From Escherichia coli (GTDB lineage Bacteria > Pseudomonadota > Gammaproteobacteria > Enterobacterales > Enterobacteriaceae): a DNA stretch of 64,000 nt. A program made the position numbers and the translations under genes. Position 1 is the stretch's first letter. Every line of letters starts with the position of its first letter. Shown here one piece after another: positions 62,458-62,542 of the stretch. A model generated the notes under the pieces. That model saw only the letters and a program-made list of their open reading frames with translations. It was not told where the DNA came from and did no database searches. The stretch lies in NCBI RefSeq assembly GCF_003334355.1, contig NZ_QOWP01000002.1; one strand, given 5' to 3'.

Positions 62458-62476
62458 AATTGAAACGATTCAGCCT
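62458..62476. promoter_or_regulatory. Cra (FruR) operator candidate, proximal
   Basis: ttgaaacgattcagc, resembling the Cra consensus GCTGAAACGTTTCAGC. Confidence 0.55.
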
Positions 62477-62526
62477 CTATGAGAAAAAAAGCGCCAACCT
62501 GGCTTAGGGTTAAAGACAAGATCGCG

Positions 62527-62542
62527 CTGAAACGTTTCAAGA
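62527..62542. promoter_or_regulatory. Cra (FruR) operator candidate, distal
   Basis: gctgaaacgtttcaag, matching the Cra consensus at 15 of 16 positions. Confidence 0.6.

Follow-up and report, generated by a model that had tools for sequence, protein, structure and literature searches.

The fruBKA operons of Escherichia coli K-12 and Salmonella, whose Cra (FruR) operators were described by Ramseier et al. (1993) and are known as fruB proximal and fruB distal, are the closest described relatives of the locus studied here. The 16-bp consensus of E. coli FruR/Cra is GCTGAAnC/GnTTCAGC (PMC7897506), and the natural operators used by the Swint-Kruse laboratory, taken from Ramseier 1993, are GAGGCTGAATCGTTTCAA for fruBdistal and TTCTTGAAACGTTTCAGC for fruBproximal (PMC11157272, Table 1). 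Cra binds both with a Kd of 1.8e-11 M (approximately 18 pM), and fructose-1-phosphate abolishes the binding (bioRxiv 10.1101/201277), the signal falling at 1 mM of the inducer. A Cra ChIP-exo study recovered 13 of 17 previously known sites, and fruBKA is not among the four that were missed (PMC5888115). Published statements place the enteric FruR sites downstream of the fru start point (PMC7897506, among others). The spacer between fruBKA and setB also holds a single CRP site through which cAMP-CRP activates both transcription units (PMC3105977).

The FruR operators O1, O2 and O3 of Vibrio cholerae fruB have the same 16-bp motif, and one of them likewise lies far downstream in the leader. They differ from those of E. 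coli in being three rather than two, in having fruR instead of setB as the divergent neighbour, and in the action of FruR at O1, where, together with fructose-1-phosphate, it activates transcription and does not simply leave the DNA. A 107-nt V. cholerae transcript, IGR4, begins at the fruB start point and ends shortly before O3 (PMC8088597), and mutation of O3 raises fru expression on glucose (PMC7897506). The lac operon is another point of comparison, since there too a LacI-family repressor binds at the start point and, downstream of it, at an auxiliary operator within the transcribed region. LacI, a stable tetramer, forms DNA loops between operators spaced in phase, whereas the fru operators are 67 bp apart and out of phase, Cra has been seen on them as separate dimers, and a terminator lies between them. 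Finally, E. coli PurR within purB and Bacillus subtilis CcpA or CodY at downstream sites are repressor roadblocks to elongation, i.e., DNA-bound repressors downstream of a promoter that halt RNA polymerase. In those systems the protein blocks by itself, whereas the fru operator lies just past a self-sufficient terminator that the protein would only reinforce.

In its final 5 kb, the window (the whole stretch of E. coli DNA that was analysed, 64 kb) carries the minus-strand genes fruA, fruK and fruB and, on the plus strand, setB. The features with which the analysis starts are the following.

61309 to 62439, minus strand: fruB, encoding the fused PTS fructose IIA/HPr protein, first gene of fruBKA (open reading frame list and RefSeq annotation of matching genomes).
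62807 to 63988, plus strand: setB, encoding a sugar efflux transporter, the divergent neighbour (open reading frame list and RefSeq annotation).
62526 to 62541, minus strand (62541 to 62526 in fruB sense): proximal Cra (FruR) operator, CTTGAAACGTTTCAGC, an exact match to the published fruBproximal oligonucleotide with two mismatches to the 16-mer consensus.
62459 to 62474, minus strand (62474 to 62459 in fruB sense): distal Cra (FruR) operator, GCTGAATCGTTTCAAT, an exact match to the published fruBdistal oligonucleotide with two mismatches to the consensus.

A 601-bp segment around the 367-bp fruB-setB spacer is present, with the two genes annotated as fruB and setB, in 5,418 of 5,426 complete E. 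coli genomes. The window comes from a non-K-12 E. coli, and the segment matches that of strain 214-4 at 100% identity and that of K-12 lineages at 99.7%, with scattered substitutions. The gene fruB of MG1655 occupies 2262365-2263495, and in this region the NC_000913.3 coordinate equals the window coordinate plus 2,201,056.

The sequence-only reading of this DNA had pointed to two Cra-like palindromes upstream of fruB within 62458-62542, which it took to be consistent with Cra repression of fruBKA. Both are there, at 62460-62474 (ttgaaacgattcagc, plus strand) and 62526-62541 (gctgaaacgtttcaag, plus strand), each with two mismatches to the palindromic consensus GCTGAAWCGWTTCAGC; in each case these sit in the outer flank of the half-site that faces away from the other operator. 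When the whole 64-kb window was scanned with this consensus, the two operators were the only 16-mers with up to three mismatches. At up to two mismatches, 0.056 sites are expected by chance per 64 kb, against two found 67 bp apart in a single intergenic region, and two such sites anywhere in the sequence occurred in 6 of 3,000 shuffles. The idea that the palindromes are chance matches, which has in its favour only the shortness of the sites, is given a negligible probability by these figures and by the retention of both sites at every related locus (see below).

Comparison with the published fruB operators shows letter-for-letter identity: GAGGCTGAATCGTTTCAA occurs once in the window (62477 to 62460) and so does TTCTTGAAACGTTTCAGC (62543 to 62526). 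The sites thus fall inside, and not outside, the experimentally defined Cra sites, whose footprint positions we took from later papers that reuse the sequences of Ramseier 1993, and the interpretation given by the sequence-only reading therefore stands. The pair is the same element as in K-12 and Salmonella, with the same position before fruB, the same repressor and the same inducer, fructose-1-phosphate, and with no difference of substance. The palindrome centre, AAACGTTT, is common to several members of the LacI/GalR family, and another repressor of the family with a similar core might in principle bind these sites in place of Cra. We consider this extremely improbable, because the outer bases, (GC)TGAA, fit the Cra-specific consensus, and because binding of purified Cra and induction by fructose-1-phosphate have been published for these exact sequences. 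The palindromes are almost certainly the two characterised high-affinity Cra operators of the fruBKA promoter-leader region. As such the observation is correct but already known, a clean confirmation of textbook operators that adds nothing new, and we found no evidence that counts against their identity.

To follow the region across Enterobacteriaceae, we used 80 fruB loci, one genome per species, from Escherichia, Citrobacter, Salmonella, Enterobacter, Klebsiella, Raoultella, Kosakonia, Leclercia, Phytobacter, Franconibacter and other genera, which with the window make 81 sequences. Both operators are present in 80 of the 80 loci. Relative to the ATG, the proximal one lies at -100 to -105 and the distal one at -33 to -39, with 66-68 bp from one to the other. 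Over the 81 sequences the proximal operator is on average 97% identical to the window (14 invariant columns) and the distal one 90%, and the figure falls to 59% in the DNA between them and to 54% further upstream. The substitutions within the operators respect the Cra motif. In the core of the distal operator, the two W positions of the consensus are the only variable ones, and the sequence there reads AATCGTTT, AAACGATT or AATCGATT; variation in the flanks includes its last two bases.

In 74 of these 80 loci setB is divergent from fruB, with spacers of 330-372 bp. Both operators are also kept in all six loci without an adjacent setB, which shows that they belong to fruB. The sequence-only reading had added that setB shares the region. 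This is true of the geometry of the 367-bp spacer and of regulation by CRP and, according to the literature, by FlhDC, for which the spacer is likewise common to the two genes; evidence of Cra control of setB was not found in the literature searched.

The conservation of the distal palindrome might also reflect a role of the RNA, as the palindrome lies in the 5' UTR. Its transcript can form a GCUGAA...UUCAGC hairpin just before the Shine-Dalgarno sequence, and the RNAs of the two operators can pair with each other (z-scores of -1.6 and -3.3), so that an RBS-adjacent hairpin or a pairing with the proximal-operator RNA could be what is conserved. The pairs of this hairpin never covary, and the substitutions track the W positions of the Cra consensus instead of base-pairing, which makes a purely RNA-level role unlikely. 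Together with the picomolar affinity of Cra for the distal-operator DNA, these observations leave such a role with very little probability. The alignment reveals one further element at this end of the leader.

62453 to 62458, minus strand: extra TTCAGC half-site directly after the distal operator, nearly invariant in the 81 sequences.

With the GCTGAA at 62469-62474 it forms a GCTGAA-N9-TTCAGC arrangement, in which the four pairs to GCUG never break and never covary in the 81 sequences; ATTCAGCAAG likewise follows the third operator (O3) in the Vibrio locus L085 described below. The extra half-site is possibly a third half-site for Cra or an arm of an RNA hairpin.

The place of the operators in the transcription unit was approached through the conserved promoter elements.

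62543 to 62572, minus strand: inferred fruB core promoter (alignment).
62567 to 62572, minus strand: -35 element CTTGCG (alignment), in which CTTG (62572 to 62569) is invariant.
62543 to 62552, minus strand: -10 region, which in Escherichia reads TATTAT (62547-62552) and in other genera AAGACT (in the columns of 62543-62548).
62599 to 62614, minus strand (62614 to 62599 in fruB sense): CRP-like site TGTGCAGCACATCAAA (conservation and literature).

Both operators lie directly upstream of fruB, the proximal one starting 102 nt and the distal one 35 nt before its ATG; their position relative to the start point follows from the inferred -35 and -10 elements. These would place the start of transcription at about 62537, inside the proximal operator, which then overlaps it, and would leave the distal operator within the 5' UTR. 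The literature searched gave no mapped fruB start point, and the supplements of Kim 2012 have no entry near the expected coordinate. In the alignment the CRP-like box reads AAATGTGC-N6-TCTAAA, and its GTGC...TC.A core is kept in all relatives. The pattern by itself is at chance level (25 found against 24.95 expected), so the match is not significant and the site is identified from its conservation and from the literature. A simple promoter and terminator scan of 62300-62950 returned no matches. It missed the leader hairpin described next because the stem is imperfect and the loop long, and its empty result is no evidence against that hairpin.

Between the two operators, the fruB leader contains a terminator.

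62491 to 62527, minus strand: leader RNA hairpin, GCGCGAUC...GGUUGGCGC (folding and compensatory changes in 81 sequences).
62483 to 62490, minus strand: U7 tract at 62484-62490 and mapped RNA 3' end at 62483, the C after the U run (Term-seq mapping).

The hairpin is 37 nt long and shares its first two bases with the end of the proximal operator. Every one of the 81 sequences folds into such a hairpin, with a dG of -10.1 to -21.5 kcal/mol (-12 kcal/mol in the window), even though the stem sequences differ among relatives (GCGCGAUC, GCGUCAUC, GCGCUAUC and GCGUCGUC, each with a matching partner). RNAalifold and an explicit count of pairs gave, at two stem positions, CG in 31, UA in 26 and UG in 22 sequences, and CG in 43 and UA in 22; five of the eight stem pairs have changed on both sides. 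The number of compensatory cells is 64, against 11.1 +/- 2.5 in shuffles, none of 500 of which reached the observed value, and 95.6% of the stem cells pair, a share that drops to 38-67% once the partner is shifted by 1-3 columns. A U run follows the hairpin on the fruB strand only, which identifies it as an intrinsic terminator of the fruB leader. The run consists of at least six T in 62 of the 81 sequences, and 73 of the 81 have at least five U within the first 8 nt; it is interrupted in about a fifth of the relatives.

This terminator coincides with a published RNA end. The Term-seq data of Adams et al. (2021; PMC7815308, supplementary files 1 and 3) include an "orphan" 3' end 44 nt before fruB, at MG1655 2263539(-), which our checked coordinate mapping places at window position 62483, 9 nt before the distal operator. 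It is covered by 218,310 reads in LB at OD 0.4 and by 431,335 in a second condition, has a Rho score of 0.26 ("No") and an intrinsic terminator score of 9.61, where 3 or more is taken as intrinsic; its "characterized regulatory element" column is empty, and fruB is absent from the main text (PMC7815308). No Rfam family was found on the fruB leader, either in the spacer at E <= 1 or in the whole window at gathering scores, and the MG1655 RefSeq annotation has no RNA gene in the spacer. The hairpin and the U7 tract are a conserved intrinsic (Rho-independent) terminator in the fruB leader.

The position of this terminator relative to the distal operator is nearly fixed. The distance from the base of the hairpin to the operator is 16 nt in 79 of the 81 sequences and 15 nt in the other two. 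Between the operators, changes in length are confined to the hairpin loop, except that two sequences have a gap of one base immediately 3' of the hairpin; past the distal operator there are more indels. From the hairpin with its U7 tract, the Term-seq 3' end, the 16-nt spacing and the layout in Vibrio (see below), we infer a possible roadblock by Cra. The question to which it is addressed is why the operon should need a second operator as tight as the first, at a distance of 67 bp that hardly favours a loop.

When fructose-1-phosphate is absent, Cra dimers occupy both operators. The proximal operator follows the -10 region closely and spans the probable start point, so that Cra bound there would block initiation, and the distal operator, in the 5' UTR, adds a second layer of repression. 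Import of fructose produces fructose-1-phosphate, which lowers the affinity of Cra for DNA and releases the operon, and cAMP-CRP bound upstream activates it. In the reading of the distal operator that we prefer, Cra at this site, 9 nt past the release point, may hold RNA polymerase on the U tract, so that the transcripts escaping the proximal operator would be terminated efficiently in the leader, giving an RNA of about 55 nt; fructose-1-phosphate would remove this roadblock. We put forward only tentatively, as possible rather than probable, the idea that the distal operator and the leader terminator form one device in which a Cra roadblock reinforces termination. It is supported by the geometry, by the comparison with Vibrio, by the higher fru expression of the V. 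cholerae O3 mutant on glucose and by genetic evidence that is confounded (the 67-bp deletion discussed below). Against it, the 3' end sits where an ordinary intrinsic terminator would release unaided, and the relatives with an interrupted U run count as a further point on that side. The literature searched contained no paper that ties Cra or fruB to a roadblock or an attenuator. If true, the scheme would explain the second operator deep in the fru 5' UTR of Enterobacteriaceae and Vibrionaceae, and would give a role to the abundant orphan 3' end at fruB -44 and to V. cholerae IGR4. Repressor-reinforced leader termination is thus a testable answer to the question of the two operators, one that would give a role to an abundant uncharacterised short RNA, and of the features described here only the leader terminator, with its fixed place ahead of the distal operator, may reward experimental work.

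The spacing of the operators bears also on cooperative looping, the usual suggestion for this pair, in which a Cra tetramer, or dimers bridged by FruK, would hold both operators as LacI does with O1 and O3, the terminator being unrelated. The presence of two equally strong operators in one promoter and the report that E. coli FruR tetramers are possible (PMC7897506) speak for it. However, the centre-to-centre distance of 67 bp amounts to approximately 6.4 helical turns, so that the sites are out of phase and a loop between them would be very short, and the distance drifts by +/- 1 bp (66-68 bp) among relatives, with the length changes confined to the hairpin loop. Furthermore, atomic force microscopy (AFM) saw separate Cra homodimers on the two operators of one DNA, although its authors want a longer spacing to test the matter, and V. 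cholerae has kept the far-downstream operator even though its FruR is dimeric. On balance we hold looping to be rather unlikely.

A published adaptive mutation affects both elements of the proposed Cra roadblock. The earliest adaptive mutation of E. coli BL21(DE3) in laboratory evolution on D-tagatose deleted 67 bp "in the Cra binding site" (PMC10101011, Table S1). The deleted string, TGAAACGATTCAGCC...GATCGCGC, corresponds to positions 62461-62527 of the window and is exactly one repeat unit between the two 12-mer operator cores, which form a direct repeat (D3) with a spacing of 67. What remains is a single hybrid operator, CTTGAAACGTTTCAAT, whose 12-bp core is intact; the hairpin is lost and the U run is kept. 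After the deletion the fru operon was expressed more than 2-fold higher on all sugars, which its authors read as loss of Cra binding (PMC10101011). The deletion equally removes the leader terminator, and in this it is compatible with a roadblock but is no proof of one: because it takes out one operator too, the effects of operator and terminator are not separated.

The arrangement of terminator and operator recurs in two Vibrio loci. The FruB homologue search listed only Escherichia and Salmonella clusters, and the Vibrio and Aeromonas loci compared here were drawn from large replicons filed as plasmids. The Vibrio replicons L083 and L085 have three FruR boxes, as in V. cholerae. In both (L083 1380-1452, L085 1300-1395) a hairpin followed by U7 (AAUUUUUUU) stands directly upstream of O3, with 17-18 nt from the base of the hairpin to O3. 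The Aeromonas locus L084 has two boxes at the promoter, no downstream box and no obvious terminator. As to the replicons themselves, the PLSDB "plasmids" of L083 and L085 (NZ_CP046163.1 and NZ_CP045339.1) are Vibrio replicons of 1.7-1.8 Mb that carry fruBKA and resemble second chromosomes, and that of L084 (NZ_AP026896.1), a 4.9 Mb "plasmid" of Aeromonas caviae, is evidently a chromosome.

RNAalifold predicted a second helix in the leader, between the end of the U run and the ribosome binding site.

62481 to 62485, minus strand: UUCUC, possible anti-Shine-Dalgarno arm (RNAalifold helix, columns 64-68 with 105-109).
62445 to 62449, minus strand: GAGGA, part of the fruB Shine-Dalgarno sequence and putative 3' arm of the same helix (RNAalifold helix).

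One of its pairs is UA in 65 sequences, AU in 7 (from several genera) and unpaired in 7. With a single covarying pair and as many breaks as compensations we do not claim this helix, and the UUCUC/GAGGA pairing is suggestive only. On the opposite strand, an open reading frame of 23 codons (MRKKAPTWLRVKDKIALKRFKKA, 62480-62551, plus strand) runs antisense to the leader. Its ATG is lost in many genera, which have CTCAA or CACCA for CTCAT, and its middle shows indels and free substitution; it is probably no gene.

The setB-proximal half of the spacer (62634-62698) is rich in GCTGA/TCAGC words. It includes a perfect inverted repeat, AATTGCTGAT-N13-ATCAGCAATT, at 62634-62666 and, in fruB sense, the conserved blocks TGCTGA...GCTGAA at about 62670-62688 and CATCAGCAA at about 62636-62644. 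As Cra sites these words have at least five mismatches and were rejected. They could be elements of the setB promoter or sites for another factor.

Elsewhere in the window, four Rfam families scored above their gathering thresholds: RNA-OUT (an IS10-type antisense RNA) at 70-139, the OrzO-P antitoxin sRNA at 3357-3432, the Peptidase-S11 cis-regulatory motif at 23868-23948 and naRNA4 (a REP-derived RNA) at 35597-35674. Perfect CRP cores, TGTGA-N6-TCACA, are found at 32918-32933 and 39594-39609, and a weak match to the TGAAACGTTTCA core (32920-32931, two mismatches), the only other one, overlaps the first of these.
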